Virus record (IMG/VR): IMGVR_UViG_3300037478_000544
Coordinates: 1 to 51,886 of that record
Reading direction: 5' to 3' (one strand)
DNA length: 51,886 nt
Source: a virus
Lineage: Duplodnaviria; Caudoviricetes
In this document: positions 3,943 through 35,580 of the stretch, piece after piece
How the letters are laid out: every line of letters begins with the position of its first letter
Numbering within the stretch: position 1 is the stretch's first letter
Made by a program: the position numbers and the translations under genes
Notes under the pieces: generated by a model
Seen by the model: the letters and a program-made list of their open reading frames with translations, nothing else
What the model was told of the DNA's origin: nothing
Databases searched by the model: none

Positions 3943-3950
3943 GCGGGGCG

Positions 3951-6429: not shown

Positions 6430-6674
6430 ACACGAACAGGATGAGCACGCTCGCACTGTGCGAACTGCTACTCACCGTGGTCGACGAGCTGGACCACCGA
6501 GGCCGGGCCGACTCCGGCATCGACGGGATTGTCAACGGCTGGGACACCATCACAACCGCGTGGGGCGACCTGCGCCACGACGTCGACGGCTGGAACTTCG
6601 TGTGGGACAGCGAGGGTTCGGCTGAAATCGCGCTGCGCGACCGCGGCTGCGGCTGCACCCCGCAGCCCGTCTGA
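6426..6674 (+). CDS. Hypothetical protein
   Basis: AAGGAG RBS, ATGA coupling. Confidence 0.6.
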   Translation: MNTNRMSTLALCELLLTVVDELDHRGRADSGIDGIVNGWDTITTAWGDLRHDVDGWNFVWDSEGSAEIALRDRGCGCTPQPV

Positions 6675-6763
6675 TCCGCAACCGCCCCGGGACCGGAACC
6701 GGCCGGCACACCCGCGCTCACGTCGCGGGCGGGGCACCAGCAGCACGGCGATAGGAGGCGGGT

Positions 6764-7126
6764 GTGGCACCACGAGCAAAGATTCGGCAGAACCCGCCCG
6801 TTCTGACTGGCGTTACCGGCGGCGAGTTCTGCCCCGACCACGGCCCATACCAGCCGCCGTACGAGGCGCTGGAGACCCGCCGGAAAGCGACCTCGCCCGG
6901 GGTGTCCGCCCCGCGAGCCTGGCGGCTGCTGGAGCACTCCGAGCGGCTACGGCGGACATGCCCACAATGCCGCGATGTCATACCGACGATGGGCCGCTGG
7001 GCCGCCCGAATCCGATGCGCCCTCGCGGAGGCGACAGCCAACGACCCGTTCGCACCACGGTGCCCATTTTGCGAAGTCCTACTGGACACCGACGACCCGT
7101 TCGGCGACCGGCACCGGTGCACCTGA
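6764..7126 (+). CDS. Hypothetical protein with CxxC motifs
   Basis: AGGAGG RBS; TGATG overlap with the primase start. Confidence 0.6.
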   Translation: MAPRAKIRQNPPVLTGVTGGEFCPDHGPYQPPYEALETRRKATSPGVSAPRAWRLLEHSERLRRTCPQCRDVIPTMGRWAARIRCALAEATANDPFAPRCPFCEVLLDTDDPFGDRHRCT

Positions 7127-9720
7127 TGACCGACGACCCGTTCGCACCACGGTGCCCATTTTGCTGCGCGCTACTGCCTGAGGACGACCCCAGCGGCGAC
7201 CAGCACCAGTGCGACTCCACACCCTACCCGGAGCTGGACCTCGGGCAGGTGGAGAGGTGGCTAGACCTGGTCTACCCCGCCGGCGGCCGGGAGGAGCTGC
7301 TGCACGTCGCCTCACCCTTGTCCTGGGCCGGGCGGGCGTTCAACCGTAGTGCCGGCCAGGATGTGGCCGTGGGCGACCAGTTGGCCGCCCATGTCGCCGA
7401 CCTGAACCGGCGCGGCGCGGCCGGTATCTATCTGGCCGCGTGCACCCTCCACCCTGACGCGGTCGGTCACATCGCCGACGGTGGGCGCGGCCGCAACAGC
7501 GATGCCGCCTGGCTCTACGGGGTGTGGTCCGACATCGACATAGCCGGGCCCGGCCACAAACACGACCCCGCCAAGTACGCCGGACGGGACCTGCCGCACG
7601 ACGAGGCCACCGCACGCGCCATCGTGGAAGCGAGCAAACTCCCCCAGCCCACCACCTGGGTCCACTCCGGCGGCGGGCTGTACGCCTGGTGGCTGCTCGA
7701 GCACCCCGCACCCGCCCAGCAACATGCCGAGCTGGTCAAGGCATGGCAGGCTGCGCTCGGCCGGGGAGCCGAACAACTCGGCCTGCACTACGGCACCGGG
7801 GTGTCCGACCTGGCCCGGGTCATGCGACTACCGGGCACCATCAACCGGAAGATCCCGGCCGACCCGCGACCCTGCCGGATCCTCACCGGCGACGGGCCCC
7901 GGTACGACATCGCAGGCCTGCATGCCGCCATCGAAGCCGCCAAGCCGAAGGAGAAGCCCCGGCAGGCCCCGCCTGCGGGCGCAGGAGACCCGTTCACCAG
8001 CCCAGGGCAGCAACGGCACCACCAGGGCGACGACACCCCGCTCAACGCGTTCGAGAAGGCCACCGACTGGGCGGAGATACTCGCCCCCCACGGATGGACC
8101 CTCCACCGCGGCGACGCCGACGGCACCCGCTACTGGATCCGCCCGGGCAAGGACACCGCGGGACACTCCATGACCACCGGCCACGCCGGCGACCGCGACC
8201 GGGCCTACTGCTTCTCCGACGCCGCCGGGCTGCCCGTCAACCAGTCCATGACCAAGGGCTACGTGTACGCGGCGCTGAACTTCGGCGGCGACATGAGCGC
8301 GGCAGCGCAGCACCTGTACGAACGCGGGTTCGGCGCCCGGGCCAACCAGGCCAGCAGCGGCGGGCTGGGGGGAGACTCCAGTCCCCACTCCCCCCCTCCG
8401 CACGACCCCCCGGAGGAAGAACAGCCCCCCGTCGAACACGACCAGTTCTGGAACACCCGCCCCACCCTGGCCGCAATCCGCGACACCGCCCGCGAACGCC
8501 GCGTCGCCCCCTGGGCCGTCCTCGCCTGCGTGCTGGCAACCGTGTCCACCAGGGTCGGCCCGCACGTCGTACTACCCGCCACCGTCGGCAGTGTCGCCAG
8601 CCTGAACACGTTCTGGGCACTCGTCGGCGCCTCCGGCTCCGGCAAGGATGCCGCCCTTGCCGTGGCGCAGGAACTACTCTGGCTCGACGACACCGTACCC
8701 ACCCACGAGGTGGGTACCGGCCAGGGCATCGACTCCGCCTACACCCAGCCGGTCAAGAAAGGGTCACCGGTCCAGTTCTGCGACACCGCGCTGTTCACCA
8801 TCACCGAGATCGACACCCTCGCCGCCCACGCCGCCATGGGCGGCTCCAGCATCATGAGCACCCTCCGGAAGGTGTACACCGGGGCCGCGCTCGGCTCCCG
8901 GTACGCCGACCGGGAGCGCCGCCGGCCAGTCAAGGCCCATCGGTACCGGGCCGCCGTCATCGCCGGAGTGCAACCCGCCAGGTCCGGGGTGCTGCTATCC
9001 GACGCTGATGCCGGCACCCCGCAGCGGTGGCTGTTCATGCCCACCAACGACCCGGGCGAGCACCACCGGCCCGCCAGCAGCGACCAGTTCACCTCACCGT
9101 ACGCAGACCGGATCTGGCAGCCATACCAGTACATCGCCCCCGACGGAGACCTGAGCGAAGACGACCTGCCGGTCACTGTGAAACGTCGCATCGAGATGAA
9201 GATCTGCCGCGCGGCCCGGGACGCGATCATCGCCAACCGGGACGCGCGGCTGCAGGCACCGCTGACCGCCCCCGACGGCGACCTCACCGGGCACAAACTG
9301 CTGACCCGGCTGAAGGTCGCGGCGCTGCTGGCCCTGTTCGACAACGCCCGCACCGAGGTCAACGAACAGGACTGGGAGCTCGCCGGCACCGTCACGGCGG
9401 TATCCGACGCCGCCCGGGAAGTGTGCACCAAGGCGCTGCGGCGCGCGGTTACGAAGGCGAACATCGCCCGGGCGAACATCGAGGCGGATCGGGCCGAGGT
9501 CATCGAAGACCGGACCGTGAAACGGATGGCGAAGGTGCTGCAGCGCGCCCTCGTCACGGCTGGTGGGGGGTGGCTGACACGAACCGAGCTGCGGGGCAAG
9601 TTGAACAGCCGTGACCGGCAGTACTTCGAGGCCGCGATAGCCAGGTTGGTCGATGCCGGGATGGCGGAGGTCGAGCTGACCGAACACCGGGGAGGGGAGT
9701 GCTACCGTGCTGCGCAATGA
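7126..9720 (+). CDS. Primase-helicase: RepB-type primase plus DUF3987/YfjI-like P-loop helicase and probable C-terminal wHTH
   Basis: SDID, HSGGGLYAWW and DLARVMRLPGTINRK primase motifs; GASGSGKD Walker A, TEID Walker B-like. The true start is at the TGATG overlap, not 6529. Confidence 0.85.
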   Translation: MTDDPFAPRCPFCCALLPEDDPSGDQHQCDSTPYPELDLGQVERWLDLVYPAGGREELLHVASPLSWAGRAFNRSAGQDVAVGDQLAAHVADLNRRGAAGIYLAACTLHPDAVGHIADGGRGRNSDAAWLYGVWSDIDIAGPGHKHDPAKYAGRDLPHDEATARAIVEASKLPQPTTWVHSGGGLYAWWLLEHPAPAQQHAELVKAWQAALGRGAEQLGLHYGTGVSDLARVMRLPGTINRKIPADPRPCRILTGDGPRYDIAGLHAAIEAAKPKEKPRQAPPAGAGDPFTSPGQQRHHQGDDTPLNAFEKATDWAEILAPHGWTLHRGDADGTRYWIRPGKDTAGHSMTTGHAGDRDRAYCFSDAAGLPVNQSMTKGYVYAALNFGGDMSAAAQHLYERGFGARANQASSGGLGGDSSPHSPPPHDPPEEEQPPVEHDQFWNTRPTLAAIRDTARERRVAPWAVLACVLATVSTRVGPHVVLPATVGSVASLNTFWALVGASGSGKDAALAVAQELLWLDDTVPTHEVGTGQGIDSAYTQPVKKGSPVQFCDTALFTITEIDTLAAHAAMGGSSIMSTLRKVYTGAALGSRYADRERRRPVKAHRYRAAVIAGVQPARSGVLLSDADAGTPQRWLFMPTNDPGEHHRPASSDQFTSPYADRIWQPYQYIAPDGDLSEDDLPVTVKRRIEMKICRAARDAIIANRDARLQAPLTAPDGDLTGHKLLTRLKVAALLALFDNARTEVNEQDWELAGTVTAVSDAAREVCTKALRRAVTKANIARANIEADRAEVIEDRTVKRMAKVLQRALVTAGGGWLTRTELRGKLNSRDRQYFEAAIARLVDAGMAEVELTEHRGGECYRAAQ

Positions 9721-10202: not shown

Positions 10203-10438
10203 TCATGATCGACCGCGATGCTCTGGCCGCCGAGGTCCAAGCGCGCATCGAGCAGGCCATCGCCGAACGGGAACGCCGCCGGCAGCACACGGCCGCGGTC
10301 CGGGCACAGTTCGCCCAGGCCCGCCGGCACGGGCTTGCCGCCCGCCACCAGCGGCGCATGGCTCGAGCCGAACAGCGGCTACGGCAGGCACGGCACGACG
10401 GGACCGAGGACAGCTGGTGGGAGGAGCAGGAGCCATGA
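10199..10438 (+). CDS. Small basic helical protein (similar to 43491-43712)
   Basis: ARRHGLAARHQRR here versus ARAAGKMARHAQR in element 2. Confidence 0.6.
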   Translation: MIMIDRDALAAEVQARIEQAIAERERRRQHTAAVRAQFAQARRHGLAARHQRRMARAEQRLRQARHDGTEDSWWEEQEP

Positions 10439-10461
10439 GTGTCACAGATCTGTGACACTCA
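10436..10461. promoter_or_regulatory. Perfect 26-bp palindrome, operator-like
   Basis: TGAGTGTCACAGATCTGTGACACTCA directly upstream of the HNH-like gene. Confidence 0.6.
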
Positions 10462-10490
10462 CGGCCAGCACCCAGCATAGGGAGCAGCAC

Positions 10491-10763
10491 ATGAGCCGCA
10501 ACTGGACCAGCGCAGGCCACGCACAACGCTACGGAAACGCGCACCAACGGCTACGTCGCCGCTGGGCACCCCTGGTAGCAGCAGGCGGTGCCAACTGCTC
10601 ACGCTGCGGCCAGCCCATCTACCCTGGCCAAGCATGGGACCTTGGCCACACACCAGGTGACCGGCACACCTACGCAGGACCGCAACACGCCGTGTGCAAC
10701 CGCAACACCACCGACGAGCGAGGCGCAGCAGACCCGGCACCAAAACCGAGAACCAGGTGGTGA
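10491..10763 (+). CDS. Packaging-associated HNH-like endonuclease
   Basis: CSRC...WDLGH...GPQHAVCN; homologue of 44474-44788; adjacent to the terminase region. Confidence 0.8.
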   Translation: MSRNWTSAGHAQRYGNAHQRLRRRWAPLVAAGGANCSRCGQPIYPGQAWDLGHTPGDRHTYAGPQHAVCNRNTTDERGAADPAPKPRTRW

Positions 10764-10772
10764 CCCCCTATC

Positions 10773-11330
10773 ATGGAAGACGTGACCTGCCCGATCTGCC
10801 TCACCGGCCGCCGCTTCCACGGCGGATGTCTGGCCGCGGCGCTCGGCTGGATCGCACACGGCAACTACCAGGCACCCCACGAACCGGAGCTCGCCCGGCA
10901 GTTGGCACCGACCTGCTACCTGTGCGGCACCGCCCGCACCGAGCACGTCGAGCACGTCATACCCAGGAACGGGGGAGGCGGCGACCAGTGGTCCAACATC
11001 GGTGGAGCCTGCGCGCCGTGCAACCAGGCCAAGTCGGACCGGCTGCTGCAGCTGACCAAGCCACAACAGGATCGGCTCAACCAGCACCAAGCCGCATACC
11101 GATCGGCATGGTCTCGAGTCACGCCCGAGGCTGTTGCTAGCGAGGTACTACGCCTGGTCTACGCCAGTACCACGTACACCCCTGGTGACCCGTTGGAGTG
11201 GATAGCCGAAGCGATCGAAGACGAACTTGACTCCTACATCGACCAGCAGGTCACCAGCGTCGTCGCTGAGGCAGAGCAGATCACAGCGCAATTCGCACAA
11301 AATGACGTCCGATTGGCATTTTTTCCCTAA
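10773..11330 (+). CDS. HNH endonuclease
   Basis: CYLC...EHVEHVIP..GGGDQWSN...CAPCNQAKSD. Confidence 0.85.
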   Translation: MEDVTCPICLTGRRFHGGCLAAALGWIAHGNYQAPHEPELARQLAPTCYLCGTARTEHVEHVIPRNGGGGDQWSNIGGACAPCNQAKSDRLLQLTKPQQDRLNQHQAAYRSAWSRVTPEAVASEVLRLVYASTTYTPGDPLEWIAEAIEDELDSYIDQQVTSVVAEAEQITAQFAQNDVRLAFFP

Positions 11331-11379: not shown

Positions 11380-13032
11380 TCAGGCACGCTTCCCTCCGGC
11401 GATGACCATGGGGCGGATCTTCGGGGCGTATGGCACGGTGAGGCTGGTGTAGGTCATTCCGGCGAACGCGTAGGCTGCGTCGACGTGGCCGGCGCCGCGG
11501 CGTACGAAGCGCCATCCGTCGCCGGTGTGGTATCGGGTGGCCCCGGCGATGTGCGCGTTGAGGAGTGGGTCGTTGGGGTGGATGACCCGCCGGGCGGCTA
11601 CCAGGTCGGCTAGGCCTTGGCAGGCTTCGTTGACCATCTGGCCCTTCAGCTCGTGGCTTCCGGCTCTCGACCGGAGGATGGGTGCCAGCGAGGCGGCGGG
11701 CCCGGATGGGTACCAGGCTGTGATCCTGGGTTGGATCTGGTTGAGCAGGTCGGGCAGTTGGGCTCTTGCTTCGCGGGTGGTTTTCCATGCTGCGGAGATT
11801 TCGCCGCGGACTCGGCCGTCGTGGAGTTCGGCACCGACGGCTAGTGTCACGTGCTGTCCGTCGACTGCGACGTCGATGCATGCGACGATCCGGTCGCGGA
11901 GGTCGTTGAGGTTGCCGGTGGGGTCGGAGCAGTCTTTCCATGCTGGCAGCGGGATTGCGCCGTCGAGGGTGTCTACCTTCTGGCAGAGGACTTCTGTGCG
12001 GTAGACCTCGGGTGGGTCGGTGGCTTGCGCGGTGCGGATGGCTGCTTGGTTCGGGCCGCCGCAGTTGAGCCCTGGGTTGGCTTGGGCGATGGCGGCCCAG
12101 TCGTCGAGGTCGCATCCTTCCGGCGCGGACCACTCGAACAGGCCGATGGACGGGTCGCGGGCTGGTCCGAGGATGGACACGCCGTCTGGTCCGGTGGTGA
12201 CTCCGGCGGCGGCTCGTAGCTGGTTGAGGACTACGGATTCTTCGTCGCCCATGTTCGACATGACCCATATCTGGCCGTTTGGGCGGGCCATGACCGTTTT
12301 CGACAGTGCTGACCATGCTTTCCAGTCGCGCTGTTCGCGGAGTTCGTCGATGTTTAGTTCGTCGATTGACAGTCCGCGGCCGGCTTTCCGGTTGGTGGCT
12401 CTGATGAGGTAGCGGGGCAGCGCTTCGCGGGGTGTGCCGGGTGGTGCGTTGCTTTGTAGCCAGAACTGTTCGTCGCCGTTGACGCTGCGCTCGCCGCCCC
12501 ACTCCCCTTTGAGGTCGGGGCAGGCGTGGATGGTGGCTTTGCACAGGTTCATCTGTTCGCGGGCAAGGGCGACGTCCTGTGCCGTGCCTAGCACGACCCG
12601 GGCGCCGTCGAGGTACAGCCGCCACAGGCTGAGCTTCCGTTTTGCCGTGGATTTACCGTTTTGCCGGGCAACGATGACCAGGACGATTCGGAATCGGTAG
12701 GTGCCGTCTGGGAGTAGCTCCAGGGCGTGGATGTTGAGCCATTGCTGCCAGGGAAGGTTCGGCTCGCCGATGATGTCGGTGAACTCGTTGGCCTCATATC
12801 CGCGGGTGGTGTCTCGGGTCAGCGGTCGAAACGGAGGCGTCCATAACCGTGGTTCCGTGCGGCCGACGACCTTTGAGGCGTACAGGTGGGCGGCCGGTTC
12901 CTGCGGCGGCGCGTGGCCGGTGCAGAGTTCGCCGCCGCGCGGTGCCAGTTTCCGGCATCCGCCCTCGGCGCAACGTTTACGCCCGGCGAGCTTCCCGGAG
13001 CTGGTCGAGCTTGGTGGTGCCACCGGTGGCAC
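11380..13032 (-). CDS. terL: Terminase large subunit (inverted orientation)
   Basis: PWQ, VARQNGKS Walker A, IDELRE Walker B, ANP, C-terminal HVDAAYA nuclease motif. Confidence 0.93.
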   Translation of the reverse strand: MPPVAPPSSTSSGKLAGRKRCAEGGCRKLAPRGGELCTGHAPPQEPAAHLYASKVVGRTEPRLWTPPFRPLTRDTTRGYEANEFTDIIGEPNLPWQQWLNIHALELLPDGTYRFRIVLVIVARQNGKSTAKRKLSLWRLYLDGARVVLGTAQDVALAREQMNLCKATIHACPDLKGEWGGERSVNGDEQFWLQSNAPPGTPREALPRYLIRATNRKAGRGLSIDELNIDELREQRDWKAWSALSKTVMARPNGQIWVMSNMGDEESVVLNQLRAAAGVTTGPDGVSILGPARDPSIGLFEWSAPEGCDLDDWAAIAQANPGLNCGGPNQAAIRTAQATDPPEVYRTEVLCQKVDTLDGAIPLPAWKDCSDPTGNLNDLRDRIVACIDVAVDGQHVTLAVGAELHDGRVRGEISAAWKTTREARAQLPDLLNQIQPRITAWYPSGPAASLAPILRSRAGSHELKGQMVNEACQGLADLVAARRVIHPNDPLLNAHIAGATRYHTGDGWRFVRRGAGHVDAAYAFAGMTYTSLTVPYAPKIRPMVIAGGKRA

Positions 13033-13258
13033 CTCCCTTGCTTACTGCGGCGCGGGCGTGGGGTGTGGCGCCGAGGGCTTCGAGCGTGGCGAGCAGCCGC
13101 GGGCCGAGGTCTTTCAGCTGTTCGGGGTCGGCGTCGATGCTGGCCGCGTACCGCTCGGCGAGGGTGGCCGCCGCGGAGTCTTCGGGCCGCAGGGTCAGGT
13201 TCGCGATCGTGTGCTGGACGGTGGGTAGCAGCAACTCGTCTGCGCTTCGGAGGCTCAC
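12977..13258 (-). CDS. terS: Terminase small subunit
   Basis: YAASID...LGPRLLATLEALGATPHAR...LDQLR pattern; directly upstream of terL. Confidence 0.85.
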   Translation of the reverse strand: MSLRSADELLLPTVQHTIANLTLRPEDSAAATLAERYAASIDADPEQLKDLGPRLLATLEALGATPHARAAVSKGGATGGTTKLDQLREARRA

Positions 13259-13325
13259 GGCACCACCATCCCTAGTTGTCCTACCTGTCCCATAGGATTA
13301 TAGGGAATTACGGTATGCTCTGGTC
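13259..13325. promoter_or_regulatory. Divergent promoter region between terS and the head gene
   Basis: AT-rich 67 bp with imperfect inverted repeat (TCCCTA..TCCTA / TAGGA..TAGGGA); TATGCT 6 nt before the GTG at 13326. Confidence 0.55.
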
Positions 13326-16300
13326 GTGGCCGGTTTTTGGCGTGGAATCTTCGGCGCTCCCAGGGAGCAGTTGCGGATGGAAGCCGCCCGCCCGCATGCC
13401 CGGTTCTCGCTGGAAGTCCCTCAGGAGATGTTGGAGGCGATGAATGGCGACGGTGCGGTTGCACCGCGGATGCGTCGGCGCGACGCGCTGCAGGTGCCGG
13501 CGGTGCTCCGGTCGCGGAACCTGATTGCCGGCACGCTCGGGTCGCTGCCGCACACGGTCATCGGCCCGGACAAGCTGGAAGTGGACCGCGGGACCTACCT
13601 GCTCGGCGGGAACATCGACCCGGACATTGCCAACTCGGTGGTGCTGGCGCAGACGTACGAGGACCTGCTGTTCGAGGCGATCTCGTGGTGGCGGGTCACC
13701 CGGGTGGGCTGGCACGGGTTCCCGATGGAGGCCCAGCATGTGCCGGTCGAGTCGGTGCATGTCGCCCCGGTCGGGTCGTCGATGCCTTCACAGCAGCAGA
13801 TATCGCCGGACCAGCCGTTCCCGGTCGACGGGCAGGTGTTCATCGACGGAATTCCGGTCGGCGACCGGGAGGTGATCCGGTTCGACTCTCCGAACCCGCC
13901 GCTGCTGGTACATGCCGCCCGGGCCATCCGCACCTGTCTGAAGCTGGACCGGGCGGCCGCCCTGTACTCGGATGACCCGGTCCCGCTGGGCTACTTCGAA
14001 CCGCAGGAGGGCACCGACGGCCTGTCCAGTGAGGCCGGGTCGGCCAACGACGGCACCGACCGGTCCGAGGTTGACGCGCTGCTCGACGAGTGGCAGCTGT
14101 CCCGCAGCCGACGCGCCTGGGGCTACGTGCAAGGGGTGACCGCCAAGTCCTTGCAGTGGAACCCGGAGCAGCTGCAGCTGGCCGCCCAGCGGCAGCATGC
14201 GGTGCTGGAGATCGCCAGGGCTGCGGGGGTGGACCCGGAAGACCTCGGGGTGAGCACCACCTCCCGGACGTATCAGAACGGGGAGCAGCGCCGGCAGGAC
14301 CTGCTCGACTTCAACCTGGGCGCGTACGTGTCGGCGGTGCAGGACCGGCTGTCGATGCGGGATGTGCTGCCCCGCGGCTACATCGCGCGGGTGCGGCTGG
14401 CCGGGTTCCTGCGTTCGGACACGAAGACCCGGATGGAGACGTACAAGATCGGCCTTGAGGTCGGGGCGTACACGCAGGATGAGGTCCGCGAGTTGGAGGA
14501 CCGGCCGGCGCTGACCCCGGCGCAGCGTGCCGCCGCGCAGCAGCGGGCCGCGCCCGCCACCCCGCCGGCGAGCCCGGCCAACGGCCAGAACGGGAGAACC
14601 CCGGCCATGAATCTTCAGCCTGTCAAGTTCAGCCGCACCACCGGAGATGAGGTGGTGCGGGTCCAGTTCGACGACGATGAGGTCGCGGAGACGTTCCAGG
14701 TGGACGCCGAGCGGCGAACGATCACCGGGATGGTCGTGCCCTGGAACAAGGTCGCACGGTCCGGGTTCAGCAAGTGGCGGTTCGCACCCGACAGCCTGCG
14801 CTGGTCGGATGTCAGCCGTGTGAAGCTCAACCTGCACCACGACTTCTCCCAGCTGGTTGGCCGAGCAACCCGACTCCAGTCTGGTAACCGGGGGCTGGTA
14901 GCCACCTTCAAGGTGGGTCGCGGCCCGGAGGGTGACCGGGCATTGTCTGGCGCCGAGGACAGGATCCTCGACGGGTTTTCGATCGAGGTCGACTTCAACG
15001 ACGACCTCGGTGACCAGTGGCAGCCGGACCCGTCCGACGAGAGTGTTCGCCTGGTTCGCCAGGCCAGCCTGCGCGGAACGGCTCTGACAGGCATGCCCGC
15101 ATTCGACGACGCCCGGGTGACCCGGGTGGCCGCAACCAGAGAAGGGAAGGGCGTCATGCCCGAGAAGAAGGAGCCTGCGCCCGACGCACAGTTCGACCTG
15201 GACAACTATGTGACCAAGGTCGGCGAGTCGATGGCCGCCTCACACAAGCAGCTGGTGGAAGGGTTGACCGAGAGCATCGGCGAGTCGGTGTCCACCGGTA
15301 TCAAGGCTGCCCTGGAGAACATCTACGACCCGCAGCGTGACGGCCCGCAGCCGGTGCGCGCGGCCCGGTACACCGTTGGCCGTGAGGCACCGGTGTACAC
15401 CCTCAACGGTGCGGGCCCGTGTCTGGTGCGCGATGCGTGGAACTCCCGGTTCCACGGCGACTCCGACGCCTACGAGCGGCTGAAGAAGTTCCACTTCCAG
15501 ACTGAGGAGATGGCGAAGGTTGCGACGTCGCGGCTTCAGTTCGCGACCAGCCATGCGCTGCAGTTCACCCCGTCGGACACCTCAACCGCGTCGGAGGTCA
15601 TCCCGCCGGGGTACCGCCCGGACCTGTTCGTGCCGCAGATGGTGCAGCAGCGTCCGTTCGTCAACGCCCTGTCGCGGGGAACGATTTCCAACGCAACCCC
15701 GTTCGTGGTCCCGGTCTTCGGTAGCGCCACCGGCGCCACTGCCAACCACGTGGAAGGCACCGGCCCCTCAGATGGCACGCTCGCCTTCGACACGACCACG
15801 GTCACCCCGGGTGCCGTGTCCGGTCTGCTGAAGCTGACCCGCGAGATCGTCGACTCGTCGAACCCGGCGATCGACCAGATCGCGTTGGCTGCGATGCGCG
15901 AGTCGTACGCGCAGCAGACCGAATCCAAGGTGTACACGATGCTGAACACCGCCCAGTCGGGGACGATCACAAGCGGGTTCGCCACCTCGGGTGCGCAGGT
16001 GTCGGACACGACCACCGCGGACGGCGCCGCACTGCTGGCCGCGGTCCGCACACAGCTGGCGCTGTACCCATTCCGCCGGTTCGCCGCGCCGAACCAGGCG
16101 CTGATGTCACAGCGGGCAACCACGTTCTTCGCCACCGCGGTGGACGATGTGAACCGGCCCCTGCTGCCTTCGGTGGGTGCGCAGAACACGTCCGGGCTGG
16201 GCAACGCGGTCACCCAGGGCTGGTTCGTCGACGGGCTGGCGCACGTCCCCGCATGGGCGATCACCGAGGTCGGCGCCGGCGAGGGTGACGTGTTCACCCT

Positions 16301-16463
16301 CAACAGCATGGACGCGTGGGCATGGGAGTCGCCGACCCTCACCTTCCGGTATGAGGAGCGGTCAGGTCCGACGTTCATCGACCTGGCGCTGTTCGGCTAC
16401 TTCGCGACCCACCTGCTGCGCCCGGTGGGGCTCAGCGCGGTCCGTACCACCGCCGGGATCTGA
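13326..16463 (+). CDS. Portal - HK97-type prohead protease - major capsid fusion ORF
   Basis: Portal (ALQVPAV..RNLIAG, QRRQDLLDF, FLRSD...R), Ala/Pro linker, protease (LNLHHD, LDGFSIE, PAFDDARV), capsid (IPPGY.P.L, REIVDSSNPAID). No stop in 1045 codons. Confidence 0.9.
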   Translation: MAGFWRGIFGAPREQLRMEAARPHARFSLEVPQEMLEAMNGDGAVAPRMRRRDALQVPAVLRSRNLIAGTLGSLPHTVIGPDKLEVDRGTYLLGGNIDPDIANSVVLAQTYEDLLFEAISWWRVTRVGWHGFPMEAQHVPVESVHVAPVGSSMPSQQQISPDQPFPVDGQVFIDGIPVGDREVIRFDSPNPPLLVHAARAIRTCLKLDRAAALYSDDPVPLGYFEPQEGTDGLSSEAGSANDGTDRSEVDALLDEWQLSRSRRAWGYVQGVTAKSLQWNPEQLQLAAQRQHAVLEIARAAGVDPEDLGVSTTSRTYQNGEQRRQDLLDFNLGAYVSAVQDRLSMRDVLPRGYIARVRLAGFLRSDTKTRMETYKIGLEVGAYTQDEVRELEDRPALTPAQRAAAQQRAAPATPPASPANGQNGRTPAMNLQPVKFSRTTGDEVVRVQFDDDEVAETFQVDAERRTITGMVVPWNKVARSGFSKWRFAPDSLRWSDVSRVKLNLHHDFSQLVGRATRLQSGNRGLVATFKVGRGPEGDRALSGAEDRILDGFSIEVDFNDDLGDQWQPDPSDESVRLVRQASLRGTALTGMPAFDDARVTRVAATREGKGVMPEKKEPAPDAQFDLDNYVTKVGESMAASHKQLVEGLTESIGESVSTGIKAALENIYDPQRDGPQPVRAARYTVGREAPVYTLNGAGPCLVRDAWNSRFHGDSDAYERLKKFHFQTEEMAKVATSRLQFATSHALQFTPSDTSTASEVIPPGYRPDLFVPQMVQQRPFVNALSRGTISNATPFVVPVFGSATGATANHVEGTGPSDGTLAFDTTTVTPGAVSGLLKLTREIVDSSNPAIDQIALAAMRESYAQQTESKVYTMLNTAQSGTITSGFATSGAQVSDTTTADGAALLAAVRTQLALYPFRRFAAPNQALMSQRATTFFATAVDDVNRPLLPSVGAQNTSGLGNAVTQGWFVDGLAHVPAWAITEVGAGEGDVFTLNSMDAWAWESPTLTFRYEERSGPTFIDLALFGYFATHLLRPVGLSAVRTTAGI

Positions 16464-16465
16464 TC

Positions 16466-16744
16466 ATGATCCGGTGTGGTGGTTGGGTTGACCATGGCGA
16501 CGGGAAGGGCTGGGTGCTCTACGTGCCCGGCCCGCCCGCCGGCGAGTCGACGCCGGCCAGTGTTGAGCAGGAGCCTCCGCCGGATCCTCAGTTGGAGCAG
16601 GCGGCCGACGGGCAGCCGGACAAAGCTTCCTGCCCCGACTGCGGCCGCGAGTTCGCGGTCAACAAGGACGGCAGCCTGCGCAAGCACACCTGTGTGATCG
16701 GCGCCCCGGCGGTGGAGGTCACCTTCGGCGACGGGCCTGGATGA
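16466..16744 (+). CDS. Small Zn-ribbon protein
   Basis: CPDCGREF...LRKHTC; lies between capsid and adaptor genes. Confidence 0.65.
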   Translation: MIRCGGWVDHGDGKGWVLYVPGPPAGESTPASVEQEPPPDPQLEQAADGQPDKASCPDCGREFAVNKDGSLRKHTCVIGAPAVEVTFGDGPG

Positions 16745-17106
16745 TGGACTGGCCACCGGTGTTGGACGAGCTGAAGGAGGATCTGCGCTCCCGCGGCGAA
16801 GACCCGGTCGCGTTGGATGTTGACGACGACCGGCTACAGACCGTGCTCGACGCGTCGGTCAGCTTCGTACGCCGGGTGCGGCCCAGGTTCAACTACGACG
16901 GCGACCTGGGCAGCACGCTGCCGGAGCCGACCGCGGATCTGGTGTTGGGCACGGTGCGGCTGGCATCGCGGTGGCACACCCGCCGCCGCTCCCCGGACGC
17001 GCTGATCGAGATGGGTGAGCTGGGCGCCTCCCGGGTCCCCAGCTTCGACCCGGACATTGACCGGCTGCTGCGAATCGGCCGTCACGCCCTTCCGGTGGTG
17101 GGCTGA
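16741..17106 (+). CDS. Head-tail connector/adaptor (gp6-like)
   Basis: Position; LGTVRLASRWHTRRRSPD...FDPDIDRLL. Confidence 0.8.
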   Translation: MMDWPPVLDELKEDLRSRGEDPVALDVDDDRLQTVLDASVSFVRRVRPRFNYDGDLGSTLPEPTADLVLGTVRLASRWHTRRRSPDALIEMGELGASRVPSFDPDIDRLLRIGRHALPVVG

Positions 17107-18868: not shown

Positions 18869-19324
18869 ATGGCCAAGAAGACCAGCCTCACTATGACGGT
18901 GCGCATCGAAAACTTGGACGCCACGCTGAAAGCGTTCCGCCAGCTGCCGAAGGATGCCAACAACGAGCTGCGGGACCGGGCCAAAAGCCTGGCGCAGACA
19001 CTGGCCGGCAAGGTGAAGGCCGCAGCCGCCTCTGACCAGTCACCACAGGCCGCTCTGCTGGTGCCGACGATCCGGGCCCGGCGGGACCGGGTGCCGGTGA
19101 TCGCCGCCGGCGGGGCCAAGCGGGTCGGTAGCAGGCGGGTGCCGGCGTGGGTTGTGTTGTTCGGCGCAGAGTTCGGGTCCAACAGGTTCCCCCAGTTCGG
19201 CAAGCCACATACCGGTCGCCAGGGTTCGTGGCTGTTCGGCGTGGCAGACCGGGAGCAGGCCACGATCGAGCGGGAGTGGAACGCCGCAGCCGATGAGATC
19301 GCCGCCAAATGGGGTGACCGCTGA
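18869..19324 (+). CDS. HK97 gp10-like virion morphogenesis protein
   Basis: Basic protein with FGAEFG and SWLF motifs; AGGAGG RBS. Confidence 0.65.
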   Translation: MAKKTSLTMTVRIENLDATLKAFRQLPKDANNELRDRAKSLAQTLAGKVKAAAASDQSPQAALLVPTIRARRDRVPVIAAGGAKRVGSRRVPAWVVLFGAEFGSNRFPQFGKPHTGRQGSWLFGVADREQATIEREWNAAADEIAAKWGDR

Positions 19325-20937
19325 TGGCCGCCGGGGTGCGCACTTTGGTCGTGAAATTCGTTGGCGATGCTTCCGGGTTGACGTCGGCGTCGAAGACGGC
19401 TCAAACCCAACTGGAGAAGGGCAAGCAGTCGTTCGGCAAGCTGAACAAGGCCGCTGTGTTCACCTCCGGCTTGGTGGTGGGCGCGTTCGGGCTGTGGGCC
19501 AAGGGCGCTATCGCGGCGGCTGAGGAAGGTGTTGCCGCCGAGAAGAAACTCACGAACGTGTTCGAGCAGATGGGTGGCACGGGAACGGAGACGTTCGCCC
19601 AGCTGGGGGACGCGGCCAAGTCGATCGGTAAGGACATAGCGCAACCGGCAACCGAGATCACTAAGGTACAGACGAAGCTGGGCACGTTCGGCAAAGTCTG
19701 GGAAGACCCGATCAAGGGTGCGGAGAACTTCAACCGGGCCACCGTGCTGGCATTCGACCTGGAAGCGGCCGGGTTCGGGACGGCCGACTCAAACGTCACC
19801 CAACTGGGCAAGGCTTTGCAGGACCCGACCAAGGGCATGACCGCGTTGGCCAGGGCCGGGGTGTCGTTCACCGACGCCGAGAAGGAGAAGATCAAACAAC
19901 TGCAGGAGTCCGGTAACCTGCTCGGCGCGCAGGAGATCGTCTACCAGGCATTGGAGGAACAGGTCGGTGGCACCGCCGCGGCGGGGGTGACCGACTCGGA
20001 GCGGATGCGGGTGGCGATTGGTGAGCTGTCCGAGTCGTTCGGCCGGGTGCTGCTGCCGGCGGTCAAGTCCGTGTCCGAATGGGTGCAGAAGCTGACCGGG
20101 TGGATGGAGGAGAACAAGACCACCGTCGCCATCATCGCCGGTGTGGTGGTCGGCCTGGCTGCCGCGATCCTGGCGGTGAACGTTGCGGTCAAAATCTGGC
20201 GGGCCGCGGTGGTGGTGGCCACGGCCGCGCAGTGGCTGTGGAACATCGCCATGTCGGCCAACCCGATGGGGCTGATCATCATCGTCATCGCCGCGGTTGT
20301 GGCAGCCATCGTCCTGCTGATCATCCACTGGGACACGGTTAAGAAGGTCGCCCTGCTGGTGTGGGACAAGATCTGGGGCGGGATCAAGAAGGTCTGGGAG
20401 TGGATCAAGAAGAACTGGCCGTTGCTGCTGGCGATCATCACCGGGCCGATCGGCCTGGCAGTCCTGTTCGTCGTCCGCAACTTCGACAAGATCAAGGCCG
20501 GTGCTGGGCGGGTCAAGGACTTCATTGCCGGCATCCCCGGCCGGATCAAGTCCGCGTTCTCCCGGTTGGGCGAGATCATCACCGCGCCGTTCCGGGCCGG
20601 GTTCGAAGCTGTCAAACAGATCTGGAACCGAACGATCGGCGGCAAGGGGTTCGACATCCCGAGCTGGGTGCCTCTGGTGGGTGGCAAGAGCTTCCGGTTC
20701 CCCCGGTTCCACTCCGGCGGGGTGGTGCCGGGTCCGCTGGGCCGGGAGGTGCCGATCCTGGCCCGCGCCGGCGAGCGGGTGTTGACCCGGGAGCAGGATC
20801 TGGCCGGCGGCGGCGACACAAACGTGACGGTGATCATCGACGGCCGGGCGATCGACGAGTCGCTGGTACGGGTGGTGCGTAGCCGGGACCGTGGCCTGAA
20901 ACGGCGTGTGCGTGCCGGATCGGGGGCATTCGCATGA
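19324..20937 (+). CDS. Tape measure protein (short, 537 aa)
   Basis: LGKALQDP, W-spaced helical repeats, MSANP.G hydrophobic segment, FHSGGVV...GERVL C-terminus. Confidence 0.9.
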   Translation: MAAGVRTLVVKFVGDASGLTSASKTAQTQLEKGKQSFGKLNKAAVFTSGLVVGAFGLWAKGAIAAAEEGVAAEKKLTNVFEQMGGTGTETFAQLGDAAKSIGKDIAQPATEITKVQTKLGTFGKVWEDPIKGAENFNRATVLAFDLEAAGFGTADSNVTQLGKALQDPTKGMTALARAGVSFTDAEKEKIKQLQESGNLLGAQEIVYQALEEQVGGTAAAGVTDSERMRVAIGELSESFGRVLLPAVKSVSEWVQKLTGWMEENKTTVAIIAGVVVGLAAAILAVNVAVKIWRAAVVVATAAQWLWNIAMSANPMGLIIIVIAAVVAAIVLLIIHWDTVKKVALLVWDKIWGGIKKVWEWIKKNWPLLLAIITGPIGLAVLFVVRNFDKIKAGAGRVKDFIAGIPGRIKSAFSRLGEIITAPFRAGFEAVKQIWNRTIGGKGFDIPSWVPLVGGKSFRFPRFHSGGVVPGPLGREVPILARAGERVLTREQDLAGGGDTNVTVIIDGRAIDESLVRVVRSRDRGLKRRVRAGSGAFA

Positions 20938-21785
20938 TCACATCCGTGTTCTTCGACGACACGTGGCGGGTCAGGCTCACCCTGTCAGGCCTGCCGGCTG
21001 GCACGGTCAACGTGGAGCGGTCCACCAACCAGCTGTTCTGGCAGATGGTTCGGGGCGGGGAAGAACTTCCGATCGTCGGCGGTGCGGCGGTGTTGGACGA
21101 CTGGGACGGGTACGCCGAAGGCGTACCTAACCACTACCGGGTAACACAGACCAGCTTGGAGGACCTTGTGGACGTTTTCACCTCGTCCGGCACCTGGACC
21201 AAACCAGCCGGCCTGGTCGCCGCGAAGGTGACCGTCGCCGCGTCTGGCGCCGGTGGCCAGGGCCTGGCGGCGAACAGCAACGCGGCCGGCGGCGGTGGTG
21301 GTGCCGGGGCCACGACCATCGCGTGGATACCGGCCGCAGACCTGGGGGCGACCGAGACGGTGACCGTGCCTGCTGGCGGTGCCGGTGGGGTTGGTGCCGC
21401 GGCGCCCAGTGGTGGCGCCACGGCAACCTTCACCGTCACCGGAGGCACCGACGTAACTGCTGCCGGCGGCGGGATACCGTCGGTTGGGACCGGCGGCGGG
21501 GGGGCTAGCACCGGGACTGGCGGGACGGTGTTTGCTGGCGGCGCGGGTAACAGTGGTTCGGTCGGGTCATCTGATGCCGCAGGAGGCAACGGCGGCGCCA
21601 GCTACTGGGGTGGTGGAGGATTGGGCGCCCGCGGCCGTGGCGCATCTGGTGCCGCAGCCGGATCCAATGGCGTGGCTCCCGGGTCGGGTGGCGGCGGGGC
21701 GAACGTCGCCGCCTCTGGCACTGAACAGAACGGCGGCAACGGTGCCCCTGCCAGGGTCGTCGTCGAGCACATCTTCGCCGGGTGA
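20934..21785 (+). CDS. Minor tail protein with glycine-rich domain
   Basis: N-terminal beta domain followed by FTSSGTWTKP and GxGG repeats. Confidence 0.8.
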   Translation: MITSVFFDDTWRVRLTLSGLPAGTVNVERSTNQLFWQMVRGGEELPIVGGAAVLDDWDGYAEGVPNHYRVTQTSLEDLVDVFTSSGTWTKPAGLVAAKVTVAASGAGGQGLAANSNAAGGGGGAGATTIAWIPAADLGATETVTVPAGGAGGVGAAAPSGGATATFTVTGGTDVTAAGGGIPSVGTGGGGASTGTGGTVFAGGAGNSGSVGSSDAAGGNGGASYWGGGGLGARGRGASGAAAGSNGVAPGSGGGGANVAASGTEQNGGNGAPARVVVEHIFAG

Positions 21786-21791
21786 TGCGCC

Positions 21792-22346
21792 ATGTCTGAG
21801 ACCACGACGATCACACCCAGCCACGGCGGGAAGATCATCCTCAAGTCGGTGAAGTTCCCGTTCCTCAACCGGCCCGTCGTGGTCACCGACTTCACCGACC
21901 CGGCGCTCGGCGATCGGGGTGGCATGGCCGAGGTGTCCGGCCGGTCCATGCCCATCTCCACCCCCGACCAGCGGGCGTCACACAGCTTCGACGTGGAGCT
22001 GAGCACCGACACCCCGGTCGAGGCCCGCAACATGCAGATCATCTTGATTGCCAACCCGCACCTGTTCATTCACACCCCGAACGGGTGCGTGGTGCCCGGT
22101 GGACACGTCCGCGTCGGCGACGTCGCCCCGAACCGGCGCACCCGATCGGCCGGGTCGCCCCGCCGGTACTGGCGGCTGCCGTGCCGGCTGGTCGCCCCAC
22201 CCGGGGCGGGTGTGACCGGCGGAACCATGACCTTCGCGGCGCTGCTGGACTTGTACGGCAGCTTCGACAACATGCTCGCCGCGAACTCCACGTTCGACGA
22301 CCTGCTCGCGTTGATGGCCACCCCCGAATCGCTGGTAACACTATGA
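21792..22346 (+). CDS. Minor tail protein (distal-tail-like)
   Basis: Position after the TMP; LKSVKFPFLN...RYWRLP. Confidence 0.65.
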   Translation: MSETTTITPSHGGKIILKSVKFPFLNRPVVVTDFTDPALGDRGGMAEVSGRSMPISTPDQRASHSFDVELSTDTPVEARNMQIILIANPHLFIHTPNGCVVPGGHVRVGDVAPNRRTRSAGSPRRYWRLPCRLVAPPGAGVTGGTMTFAALLDLYGSFDNMLAANSTFDDLLALMATPESLVTL

Positions 22347-22366
22347 CCAAGAGGGTGGTGATCTAG

Positions 22367-23041
22367 ATGGGTACGACCGTCCCGTACGGGCTGCGGTTCC
22401 CGGTCGGCACCGACGTGCCGAACGTGCCGGTCCGGATCCGGGACCTGGCCGAGGACGTCAACGACCAGATCCTGCGGGTCGACGACGATGCGGCTACCCT
22501 GAGCGCCGCCGCGGCCGCGGCAACCTTGGCTGCCAGCAACATCAAAGTCCTCGGCACGATCAACTCCGGTGCCGGCACCAACACCACCGAGTTCTCCGGC
22601 ATCGACCAGACCTACCGCGACCTGCTGATCATCTGGCAGGGGATCAGCGACGGCTCCGGTGAGATCGACTCGCTAGCTGTCAGGTTCAACGGCGACAGCG
22701 GCGACAACTACCACAGCCGGCTGACACGTCCCCTGGCTGCCGGCGACTTCATGGCCACCGACGGCGCGCTGGATAACTACACGTTCTCGGTGTTGCGCGC
22801 CGGCTATGTGGGGACGCTGTTGAGCGCCGGGACCATATGCATTCCCAACTATGCCGGCGGCGGTCAGAAGTTGGCCACCGGTGCCAACATCGCCGTCGGG
22901 CAGTCGGGTGCCACCAACATTTTCCCGGTCAACGCCGGCGGCCGATGGACCGGCACCGATGCAATCACCAGCATCCGCATCTGGCCGTCGGGGCAACTGT
23001 GGCAGGGCAACCCTCATCTCACCTTGCTCGGGTTGCGGTAG
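22367..23041 (+). CDS. Minor tail / fibre-like protein
   Basis: YGLRFP..DVPNVP..LAEDV N-terminus; FSGIDQTYRDL...AITSIRI C-terminal domain. Confidence 0.75.
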   Translation: MGTTVPYGLRFPVGTDVPNVPVRIRDLAEDVNDQILRVDDDAATLSAAAAAATLAASNIKVLGTINSGAGTNTTEFSGIDQTYRDLLIIWQGISDGSGEIDSLAVRFNGDSGDNYHSRLTRPLAAGDFMATDGALDNYTFSVLRAGYVGTLLSAGTICIPNYAGGGQKLATGANIAVGQSGATNIFPVNAGGRWTGTDAITSIRIWPSGQLWQGNPHLTLLGLR

Positions 23042-23049
23042 GAGGCGTC

Positions 23050-23274
23050 ATGGCCAAGTGCAGGTGCGGCGCGACCGGAGACGCCGGCGAGCTGCTGGAG
23101 CATGCGATCTCGGCCCTGGCCAACCCGGAGGACCGGCGGGTGCACGGTTGGGACGGTGAGGCGGAGCGGGTCGCACAGGCTCGAGCCAGCCGCCGGCGTG
23201 CCGAGCAGGTGCGCCAGGCCTTGGCCGACGCTGCCGGGGTGAGCGTGGCCGAGCTGCGGGAGGCGTTGCGCTGA
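23050..23274 (+). CDS. Hypothetical protein (possible fibre chaperone)
   Basis: GGAGG RBS; TGATG coupling to the next gene. Confidence 0.6.
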   Translation: MAKCRCGATGDAGELLEHAISALANPEDRRVHGWDGEAERVAQARASRRRAEQVRQALADAAGVSVAELREALR

Positions 23275-25664
23275 TGGCCGTCGTCAACACGATCGTCGGA
23301 GCCCCCACCGAGGTGGGGGCAACGGTCGTGGCCACGGTCGACGGTGGCGGCCCGGTCCGGATCGCCGTGGCCGACAACGCGGCCATGACCAACCCGGTGT
23401 TCTCGGGCTCGCAGGCGGTTGACGCGCAGGGCGTTGCCAAGGTGACTGTCACCGGCCTGGCCGCTGACACCCGCTACTGGTGGCAGGTTGCGGACAACGG
23501 CGCCATCGACACCAGCGTCACCGGCAGAATGTGGACCCTGCCAACGGCCGGCACCCCGGCCAGTTTCCGGCTCACCGTCGCCGGCTGCGCAGGCCTGTCA
23601 CCCACCTCCCCCGGCGTCGCCGGCGGTGAGCTGGACCCGAACAAGGTGTCCAACCATCCGGTCTACGACGACATCCGCGCCCGCGACCCGCGGATGCACG
23701 TCAACCTCGGCGACTGGGGCTACCCCAACTTCGGCACCGACACAACGGACACGTTGACCAACCGGCGCCGCTACTACGACGACAACCTCGCCCAGCCGCG
23801 GCAGGCCCAGTTCTGCCGCGACGTGCAGCAGCTGGTTGAGCTGGACGACCACGACTTCGCCAGCAACGACTCCGACGGTACGTACGCCGATAAGGTGAAC
23901 GCGGCGGCTGCGTACCGGGAACGGGTGCCCCACTACCCGCTGCCCGACGCTGATGCCATGTACCAATCGGTGCAGGTCGGCCGGGTCCTGCTGGTCGCCC
24001 TGGACGTCCGTTACTTCCGGTCTCCGAACAGCGACCCGGACGGGCCGAGCAAGACCATGCTCGGGTCGGTGCAGCGGGAGTGGCTGGCTGGGCTGCTGGC
24101 CGCCAGCAGCGCGGAGGTGCTGGTCGTCCTGTCCCCGTCCCAGTGGCTTGGACCGAGCAGCGACGGGTGGGGCAACTTCGCCACCGAACGGGCGCAGCTG
24201 GCCGCCCTGTTCGCCGCCCACTTCCCCGCCCGGACGGTGCTGGCGCACAGCGACCGGCACGGGCTCGGGTTGACCGGAGGCGGAACCAACACCGCCGGTG
24301 GGTTCCCCGTGCTGCAGGCAGGGTCGATCGACAGCGACTTCGGCCTGGCCGTACCCGACGTGTTCGACGTTGTTCCCGACACCCCCGGCCGCGGCCAGTA
24401 CGGAACCGTCGACGTCACCGACCTCGGCTCGGCAATCGTCATCACCCTCACCTGCTGGCGTGGCAACACCATCATCGGCTCATACCCGCACAGCATCTCG
24501 ATCACCACACCAACCTCGGTCACCTCGGCGCAGGTCCACGAGTTCGCCGCGGTCATCTCCGGCTCCCACCAGCCGGTCTTCGACGCCCGGATCCTGACCG
24601 GGTGGCGCACCGGTCCGGACCCGGCTGGGATCACCATCGCCATCCTCGGCGGGGATGTTGCCTACGACGCCACCGCGCAGGTGTTCGCCAGCCTGTCCCT
24701 GACCACCGCCGGTATCGACGAACACGACGAGCAGTCCCGGTTCCCCCGGTTGCCCAGCGACCTGTTCGCCCCCTACGGAAACGAGCTGTGGGTCCGCCGT
24801 GGTGTCGACGTCGGCTCCGGTGTGCTGTGGGCCAGCCTCGGCTACTTCCGCATCGACGCGGCCGAGCAGGACGAGTCCCCCTACGGCGACATCACCTTGT
24901 CGGGGCAGGACCGGATGGCCCATCTGATCGACGCCCGGCTGGTCGTGGCCCGCACGTTCGCCTCGTCGAACACGGTCGCGTTCGTGTTCGCCAGCCTGGT
25001 CGGGGAGGTGCTGCCGCAGGCGACGATCCTGTTCGACGACAACACCGCCACCGCCCCTCTCGGCCGGCGGCTGACCGCCGAGGAAGACCGGTACGCGGTG
25101 CTGGCCGAGCTTGCCGACTCGTACGGCAAGGTCATGTACTGGGATGGGGACGGGTTCCTGCGGGTCGAATCACCCCCGGACGAGTCGACCCCGGTGTGGG
25201 AGGTCGCCGCCGGGTCCGGCGGGGTGCTGCTCACCTCCGGGCGCAGGGTCACCTCCGAGGGGATGCGCAACGGTTGGGTGGTCACCGGTGAGGGTGGCGA
25301 CCAGCAGGTCCCGGTGCGCGCGGTAGCGGTTGACATCGGCGCGTCCTCGCCCACCCGGTGGGGTGGCCGGTTCGGCAAACGGCCCGGGTTCTACTCGTCG
25401 CCGCTGATCGTCACCGAAGCCCAGGCGGAGACGGTTGCCCGGGCCCGGCTGCTGCGCACCCTCGGCGCGCCCTACTCCGCAGACTTCAGCGACCCGGCCA
25501 ACCCGGCGCTGCGCCCGTGGCATCCGATCCGGGTCGAACAGCGTGACGGGAACCGGGAAATCCACGTGGTCTCCAGCCTGACCGTTCCGCTGACCGCATC
25601 CCAGCACATGTCCGGGTCGACCAGGGAGAAGACGCATGCGGTGATCGGCCGGGTGGTCTCATGA
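23274..25664 (+). CDS. PhoD-like metallophosphoesterase fused to DUF5047-like minor tail (hub) protein
   Basis: N-half: GLAADTRYWW, GDWGY, DDHDF, LDVRYFR, MLG..QREWL, HSDRH. C-half: SGSH..., LFAPYGNEL.VRRG, LGYFRI, G.DRM, YSSPLI. Confidence 0.85.
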   Translation: MAVVNTIVGAPTEVGATVVATVDGGGPVRIAVADNAAMTNPVFSGSQAVDAQGVAKVTVTGLAADTRYWWQVADNGAIDTSVTGRMWTLPTAGTPASFRLTVAGCAGLSPTSPGVAGGELDPNKVSNHPVYDDIRARDPRMHVNLGDWGYPNFGTDTTDTLTNRRRYYDDNLAQPRQAQFCRDVQQLVELDDHDFASNDSDGTYADKVNAAAAYRERVPHYPLPDADAMYQSVQVGRVLLVALDVRYFRSPNSDPDGPSKTMLGSVQREWLAGLLAASSAEVLVVLSPSQWLGPSSDGWGNFATERAQLAALFAAHFPARTVLAHSDRHGLGLTGGGTNTAGGFPVLQAGSIDSDFGLAVPDVFDVVPDTPGRGQYGTVDVTDLGSAIVITLTCWRGNTIIGSYPHSISITTPTSVTSAQVHEFAAVISGSHQPVFDARILTGWRTGPDPAGITIAILGGDVAYDATAQVFASLSLTTAGIDEHDEQSRFPRLPSDLFAPYGNELWVRRGVDVGSGVLWASLGYFRIDAAEQDESPYGDITLSGQDRMAHLIDARLVVARTFASSNTVAFVFASLVGEVLPQATILFDDNTATAPLGRRLTAEEDRYAVLAELADSYGKVMYWDGDGFLRVESPPDESTPVWEVAAGSGGVLLTSGRRVTSEGMRNGWVVTGEGGDQQVPVRAVAVDIGASSPTRWGGRFGKRPGFYSSPLIVTEAQAETVARARLLRTLGAPYSADFSDPANPALRPWHPIRVEQRDGNREIHVVSSLTVPLTASQHMSGSTREKTHAVIGRVVS

Positions 25665-33977: not shown

Positions 33978-34109
33978 TGGGGACCTCCGTGTGGTCTCCA
34001 GGCCCCGGGACCGGTGCGGAACACACCACCCGGGGCCGTTCTAGTAGATGAGGCCAAGCCTGACCTTTGCACTGGCGAAAGTCAAGCTCGATCGTGTTTA
34101 ATGTTCGAC

Positions 34110-35531: not shown

Positions 35532-35580
35532 TGTGACGGACGACACATTTCTCGGGCCTGTGTAAGTCATAAGGGTCCAT

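Follow-up and report, generated by a model that had tools for sequence, protein, structure and literature searches.

The 51,886-nucleotide (nt) window analysed here, positions 1 to 51,886 of the IMG/VR virus record IMGVR_UViG_3300037478_000544 (Duplodnaviria; Caudoviricetes), carries one open reading frame (ORF) that joins the portal, prohead protease, scaffold-like and major capsid parts of a phage head. This frame (13326..16463, plus strand) begins with GTG and runs for 1045 codons unbroken by a stop, or for 1028 codons from an alternative start, ATG 13377. We propose that this single late gene probably yields three nested products with a common C-terminus, which would later be matured by the S78 protease. 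The full portal-protease-scaffold-capsid chain of ~1045 residues would be made from the 5′ GTG, probably on a leaderless mRNA and probably at low output. A protease-scaffold-capsid protein of 618 residues would start at ATG 14607, led by a Shine-Dalgarno (SD) sequence, and a scaffold-capsid protein of 435 residues at ATG 15156, led by a strong SD. Because such products are nested, capsid copies would equal or exceed protease copies, and these would equal or exceed portal copies, which is the order that a head needs. At maturation, the S78 protease would remove itself, the scaffold and the linkers.

An earlier note on this DNA had described a 1045-residue ORF with no stop between its domains and an Ala/Pro linker, and both are borne out by the reading frame and by Pfam domains (matches above the curated gathering score). 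All parts lie on the plus strand. An HK97-type portal domain occupies residues 58-392 (13497..14501; PF04860, 90 bits vs. a cut-off of 39.1, profile positions 1-321 of 321). It is followed by linker 1 at about residues 396-455 (14511..14690), which is Ala/Pro-rich and poorly conserved, with a low predicted local distance difference test (pLDDT) score at ORF residues 409-441. Downstream are a Peptidase_S78 prohead protease domain at residues 459-601 (14700..15128; PF04586, 34.3 bits vs. 21), a predicted scaffold-like (delta-domain-like) helical region at about ORF residues 625-739 (15198..15542; AlphaFold2 helices and PHROG 2263), and an HK97-fold major capsid protein domain at residues 766-1025 (15621..16400; PF05065, 30.2 vs. 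24.2, and PF25209, 34.7 vs. 27). Residues 450-1042 also match positions 25-544 of the 551 in PHROG 2263 (protease and major head protein; E 3.1e-51), the protease, scaffold and capsid parts of this profile all being covered by one chain. The NCBIfam equivalog cut-offs were missed for TIGR01537 portal_HK97 (51.5 vs. 112.05), TIGR01543 proheadase_HK97 (33.2 vs. 59) and TIGR01554 major_cap_HK97 (22.5 vs. 27.5), so the fused protein is a distant relative of these families and no equivalog. In the protease domain, a His and a Ser 47 residues apart are invariant among 36 aligned sequences; they are H488 and S535 of P0002, the database protein that starts at ATG 13377, and ORF residues 505 and 552, since counting from the GTG adds 17. 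A sequence search of the PDB with the protease segment gave no matches at E <= 1.

AlphaFold2, run with the same number of aligned sequences (36; mean pLDDT 71, predicted template-modelling score (pTM) 0.37), returned three confident domains and two low-confidence stretches at 392-424 and 574-608 (P0002 numbering), and both internal ATGs sit inside these stretches. Scaffold-like helices are predicted at 608-647 and 683-722 (same numbering), with low to moderate pLDDT. Foldseek matched the portal domain to 3kdr (E 2.4e-16, template-modelling score on target 0.72) and to the HK97 portal in situ (8cez, E 3.8e-14), and the capsid domain to the HK97 gp5 entries 2fs3 and 1ohg (E ~1e-11 to 2e-11). 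In the model, two predicted disordered linkers thus join the portal, protease, scaffold-like and capsid parts, while a full-chain pTM of 0.37 allows no conclusion on how the domains pack against each other.

Relatives in which this frame is broken begin their downstream genes at positions that align with ATG 14607 and ATG 15156 of the window. We fetched 25 genome and 54 IMG/VR loci (L numbers below) and determined the frame to either side of every linker, taking junction 1 as the portal-protease border and junction 2 as the border between protease and scaffold-capsid. The frame runs through junction 1 in 65 of 76 loci; the other 11 are broken, by frameshift (L008, L020, L067, L068, L071, L072, L074, L078), by in-frame stop (L070, L076), or, in L079, by a layout of separate portal and protease-capsid genes with an extra 332-codon ORF between them. 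Junction 2 is continuous in 61 of 69 loci, and all 8 breaks (L003, L006, L034, L035, L039, L040, L058, L060) are +1 shifts. All 19 breaks, 11 at junction 1 and 8 at junction 2, fall in linkers, and none lies inside a domain. In most, the downstream gene has its own strong SD and an ATG or GTG, often overlapping the upstream stop as ATGA or GTGA. The junction-2 products open with MAPK.., MPKG.. or MAQK.. in split loci and with MPEKK.. in the window. Two side observations concern the same borders. In L079, ~1.7 kb (2454-4145) containing the 332-codon ORF, which has no Pfam match, lies exactly at junction 1. In L070 (3292-3495), L076 and the proteins P0048, P0051, P0080 and P0087, the protease part bears an extra N-terminal domain of ~45-110 residues, e.g. 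MPWHVEERDGEYCVIKDADD..., again without a Pfam match.

Both in-frame ATGs that the earlier note had placed at the domain borders, with motifs resembling ribosome-binding sites, are present in the window. Internal start 1 (14592..14609, plus strand) consists of GGGAG at 14592-14596, a 10-nt spacer and ATG 14607 at codon 428; internal start 2 (15141..15158, plus strand) consists of GAAGGGAAGGG at 15141-15151, a 4-nt spacer and ATG 15156 at codon 611. SD strength was scored as the duplex of the upstream 15 nt with the 3′-tail string of 16S, across 42 non-redundant loci fused at both junctions. Of these loci, 29 have a start with a duplex of <= -8 kcal/mol in linker 1 and 40 have one in linker 2, compared with 32 of 1998 interior in-frame ATG or GTG codons. 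Likewise, 27 of the 42 loci at junction 1 and 34 at junction 2 have a linker start that outscores at least 90% of interior windows of equal size. Site 15156 itself scores -12.8 kcal/mol, a value that no control window equals (control-window figures for the two sites of the window were taken from L026, both linkers of which are identical to it). Together with the matching gene starts of split relatives, this SD enrichment in fused loci argues that the internal ATGs are probably used as starts, and predicted nested initiation at both borders is well supported by strong comparative evidence, more firmly for 15156 than for 14607. Separately, the product of the second internal start opens with a Cys-rich motif in L043, L066, L007 and L073 (MKCSKCG.., MDKCATCG..), pointing to a small insert, similar to a zinc ribbon, where the scaffold part begins.

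The first tier would begin at the far 5′ end of the frame. The favoured start, GTG 13326..13328 (plus strand), has no SD (duplex -3.0) and opens a conserved peptide of the type (V/M)xxFWRxxFG; the 17 codons ahead of ATG 13377 encode this peptide, which in many loci is likewise conserved from an SD-less GTG or ATG. Actinobacterial leaderless mRNAs have a -10 TANNNT box ~7 nt upstream of a transcript whose first bases are the start codon. The window shares this arrangement, with TATGCT at 13314..13319 (plus strand; -12..-7 from GTG 13326) as a candidate promoter of a leaderless head mRNA. A TANNNT box at -13..-11 from the homologous start codon is kept in 35 of 61 non-redundant loci, compared with 6 of 3095 interior in-frame start codons and 0.23% of all interior positions. 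About one-third of these boxes begin with an in-frame TAA or TAG, and the others with TAC or TAT. The remark in the earlier note that the first GTG looks leaderless fits this combination of a conserved N-terminal peptide, an SD-less GTG and a TANNNT box. A leaderless start of the head mRNA is accordingly plausible from sequence, and the database gene call at ATG 13377 is probably a wrong start. To our knowledge, a leaderless start as the low-output tier of a nested head gene has not been described, and a literature search, which did not cover subscription journals, found nothing on leaderless late genes of actinophages.

Other candidate signals around this start were few. A scan of 12900-16800 gave 2 terminator-like hairpins, against 1.5 expected; one of the two, at 13320-13333, overlaps the GTG and was taken as chance. 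An inverted-repeat search of the spacer between the large terminase (TerL) and portal genes gave only a short palindrome (13196-13211), and none at the -35 region. Some relatives (L032, L033, L014, L042, L044, L075) carry short inverted repeats immediately ahead of the TANNNT box, ~15-35 nt before the portal start, such as CAGGAA..TTCCTG in L032; a comparable palindrome was not found in the window. These repeats might be operator sites.

Several points weigh against the nested-translation model and its leaderless first tier. The signal at 14607 is only moderate (-7.4 kcal/mol, matched by 13% of control windows), so that this site draws its support chiefly from homologous, stronger sites in L032, L033 and other loci. 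At junction 1, 13 of the 42 fused loci have no start of <= -8 kcal/mol, and the distant relatives L009, L011, L024 and L029-L031 show little signal. Among split loci, the ATG beside the in-frame stop of L076 is out of frame with the downstream domain, and L079 is another exception to the rule that the downstream gene has an SD and an ATG or GTG start. The anti-SD string used for duplex scoring is an assumed 16S 3′ tail. The His and Ser of the protease are a putative catalytic pair by reference to HK97 gp4 data, and the head copy numbers behind the stoichiometric argument (~12 for the portal, tens for the protease, hundreds for the shell protein) are background figures. The sequencing runs listed for the window DNA are four DNA-type sediment runs, with no RNA run among them. 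At the 5′ end, ATG 13377 (13377..13379, plus strand; codon 18) has its own SD, GGGAG 9 nt upstream (duplex -7.2), and is the choice of the database gene caller. The TANNNT box is missing from 26 of 61 loci; some of these, as well as the clade split at junction 1, have an SD-led portal start. Finally, a scan of 12900-16800 with a generic sigma-70 consensus gave no promoter-like sites.

The fusion itself is conserved. In a word-indexed protein search, 118 of the 120 matches listed were 950-1130 residues long, at 47-100% identity (100% being the window's own protein); the portal Pfam family was present in all 120, and capsid and/or protease families in most. Isolate genomes among these listed matches belong to Micromonospora, Saccharomonospora, Amycolatopsis, Actinophytocola and Jiangella, and isolates with a fused relative also include Actinoplanes subtropicus and Saccharomonospora amisosensis. 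One fused relative (L015) comes from a contig binned as Candidatus Deferrimicrobiaceae, a label outside Actinomycetota that may reflect a binning error or a wider host range. An exhaustive HMMER search returned 3310 proteins at E <= 0.001. Among the best 150 representatives of 50%-identity clusters, some short members of which may be contig-end fragments, 65 were triple fusions (912-1103 residues), 24 protease-capsid, 23 portal alone, 9 capsid alone, 8 portal-protease and 5 protease alone, the remainder being partial. The names given to fused proteins by gene callers and pipelines were only "portal", "protease" or "capsid".

Whether the full-length chain matters, or is merely carried along, can be weighed from the history of the frame. 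On a capsid-domain tree (FastTree; 62 loci, 55 distinct rows), there are at least 7 transitions between the fused and split states; splits arose at least 5 times at junction 2 and at least 2 times at junction 1. Following the segment from the end of the upstream domain to the internal start (54 and 59 of the 62 loci, for the two junctions, with a start of <= -7), we counted at least 36 length changes and 4 frame changes on the trees at junction 1, and at least 26-29 length changes and 5 frame changes at junction 2. Since insertions and deletions (indels) blind to frame are expected to break it about 2 times in 3, many length changes with few frame changes indicate that the open frame, and hence read-through, seems to be selected, which suggests that the full-length chain matters. 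Comparisons of the window with L028, L036 and L032 gave ratios of nonsynonymous to synonymous substitution rates (dN/dS) of 0.12-0.47 in the domains and 0.29-0.62 in linker 1, and all parts are under purifying selection. Between L028 and the window, dS is 0.12 in the portal, 0.91 in the protease and 0.68 in the capsid, and L034 and L035 have capsids 87-88% identical to that of the window with portal-protease parts only 63-67% identical. The linkers double as recombination joints at which head modules are exchanged.

The best-surviving alternative is that the fusion is tolerated without having a function: three translationally coupled head genes lost their stops, the internal starts do the useful work, the chain is a harmless by-product that is trimmed, and the tether is idle. 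The interconversion of fused and split forms, the coexistence of all architectures among the best 150 cluster representatives and the recombination of modules at the linkers (L028; L034 and L035) all speak for it. The fusion was lost at least 7 times among the 62 loci, so the read-through product is dispensable in some backgrounds and not indispensable, and the nearest non-identical capsids of the window, those of L034 and L035, come from a separate gene. A further caveat on the frame counts is that a frameshift adds a long junk tail to the upstream protein, and in-frame indels could be favoured for that reason alone. However, drift should break the frame far more often than the 4-5 times seen through at least 26-36 length changes; only two loci (L070, L076) have an in-frame linker stop although the linkers otherwise vary freely; and 84-88% of loci at each junction are fused. 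On balance, we regard a functionless fusion as rather unlikely.

A pure polyprotein, in which translation begins only at the 5′ start, all parts arise 1:1:1 and any portal and protease in excess is either degraded or never assembled, would draw on an uninterrupted frame under selection and on a self-cleaving protease domain. We consider it quite improbable because an SD and start are conserved at both borders far above background, and because in 19 loci the downstream parts must be translated separately from those same border positions; hundreds of portal subunits per head would, we infer, also be wasteful. The window derives from a metagenome assembly, according to the records of the runs that hold it, and yet it is hardly credible that the ORF is an artefact of assembly or sequencing, or a pseudogene decaying in a dead prophage, given that contigs of two runs agree base for base at both borders, that two IMG/VR contigs carry the same ORF (L026 and L027, 100% and 99% identity), that more than 100 full-length relatives exist, that dN/dS is below 1 throughout and that genes for integrase, replication, terminase, tail and lysis are present in the element. 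The borders, which the earlier note had proposed to verify in reads, are covered by a contig of run X1 (possibly the source sample; 13200-15500, 0 differences) and by one of run X2 (another sample from another study; 14390-15341, 0 differences and 0 gaps), while runs X3 and X4 gave relatives or partial matches only. That note had also raised the prospect of a stop after the portal in the reads or in all close homologues. The run contigs agree with the open frame, and the search for full-length homologues that it advised returned the relatives counted above, some of them in isolate genomes. The fusion being conserved among relatives, it is no private readthrough, and both this and sequencing error were rejected.

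Under the preferred reading of one gene with three nested products, flexible tethers would, before cleavage, keep protease, scaffold and shell subunits attached to the portal ring within the growing shell. In HK97-like heads, the portal C-terminal crown, the protease and the scaffold face the capsid interior; because all three face inwards and the portal domain matches HK97 portals, such a tether is topologically possible. The interpretation in the earlier note, in which nested translation sets the stoichiometry and tethered portals could nucleate assembly before cleavage at the Ala/Pro linker, is partly supported, the comparative evidence bearing on its nested starts and leaderless GTG. As a more tentative extension, which we consider possible but doubtful, the full-length chain could be a covalent head-assembly initiator, in which each of twelve portals would hold a shell subunit, a scaffold and a protease on flexible tethers directed into the future capsid. 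A portal ring of this kind would seed one shell and one only, and would supply the protease for its maturation. Initiation at the internal sites of the same leaderless mRNA would provide most of the shell protein, and selection would keep the frame open for this reason. In lambda, portal B, protease C and scaffold Nu3 form a head-assembly initiator (PMC3224144). Unlike in that complex, the components here are covalently joined and not merely associated.

Parts of this arrangement are familiar. PHROG 2263, the "major capsid and protease fusion protein" of small actinophages (e.g. Maggie and Decurro of Arthrobacter cluster AN), likewise holds protease, scaffold-like region and HK97-fold capsid in one chain, and cluster AN phages were the best matches, at ~30% identity, among 50,697 deposited phage records; 339 of these records matched, and none covers at least 80% of the fused query in one place. 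According to their annotations, however, cluster AN phages have the portal as a separate gene just upstream, whereas here it is fused in front, and they are 15-kb lytic phages whereas the element carrying the fused gene is a ~30-kb or larger integrase-bearing prophage. Nested in-frame head genes are also known, in lambda C/Nu3 and herpesvirus UL26/UL26.5, where an internal start gives a shorter, more abundant scaffold product. The fused gene has in common with these pairs an internal in-frame start within a protease-containing ORF and a common C-terminus, the use of the start in the fused gene being predicted; a conserved internal in-frame start with a ribosome-binding site, as in C/Nu3-type genes, was found at both junctions. 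Unlike lambda C/Nu3, the present gene would have three tiers and takes in both portal and shell protein. Both kinds of arrangement, the protease-capsid fusion and the nested gene of C/Nu3 type, are thus already known; the novelty lies in bringing in the portal and in the three-tier layout. No natural portal-protease-capsid fusion was found described in the literature covered, which excluded subscription journals, and, judged by titles and abstracts, only engineered T4/phi29 portal fusions turned up.

The fused gene lies in an integrase-bearing, prophage-like element of a temperate actinobacterial siphophage. On the plus strand, this element encodes a serine integrase (162-1613), a DNA methyltransferase (2367-3128), a primase/polymerase (6529-9720) and two HNH genes (10218-11330) upstream of the head gene, and a head-tail connector (16741-17106), a tape measure (19324-20937), tail fibre and tail proteins (20934-25664) and an endolysin (27274-28284) downstream; a tRNA scan found none. 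TerL (11380-13032, minus strand; PHROG 9, E 2e-58) is divergent from the head gene. This inversion is common to the window and a subclade (L005, L026-L028, L032-L036, L042, L044, L063, L075), whereas in most relatives TerL is co-directional and immediately upstream of the head gene. A second prophage-like element (33858-51886) follows the first, and the window looks like two tandem elements, each with its own serine integrase. The second encodes a serine integrase (33858-35531), a Dda-like helicase, an exonuclease and a primase (39901-42693), TerL (45250-47016), and an unfused portal (47261-48514; PHROG 12), protease (48614-49327; PHROG 80/2263) and capsid (49465-50826; PHROG 2263). Its head module shares gene order and families with the fused gene (portal 28% and capsid 25% identical), but keeps the conventional layout, its three genes being separated by spacers of 99 and 137 nt.

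How one portal, and only one, enters each capsid, and how portals, proteases and shell subunits are made in the right proportions, are open questions in tailed-phage assembly. The fused family places all these head parts in one reading frame with a built-in hierarchy of starts, and should the internal starts be in use, a single gene could provide a few portals alongside hundreds of shell subunits. For annotation, current labels miss the predicted nested products. With natural fused and split variants side by side, the family offers a compact system for studying portal-nucleated assembly and the translational control of stoichiometry.

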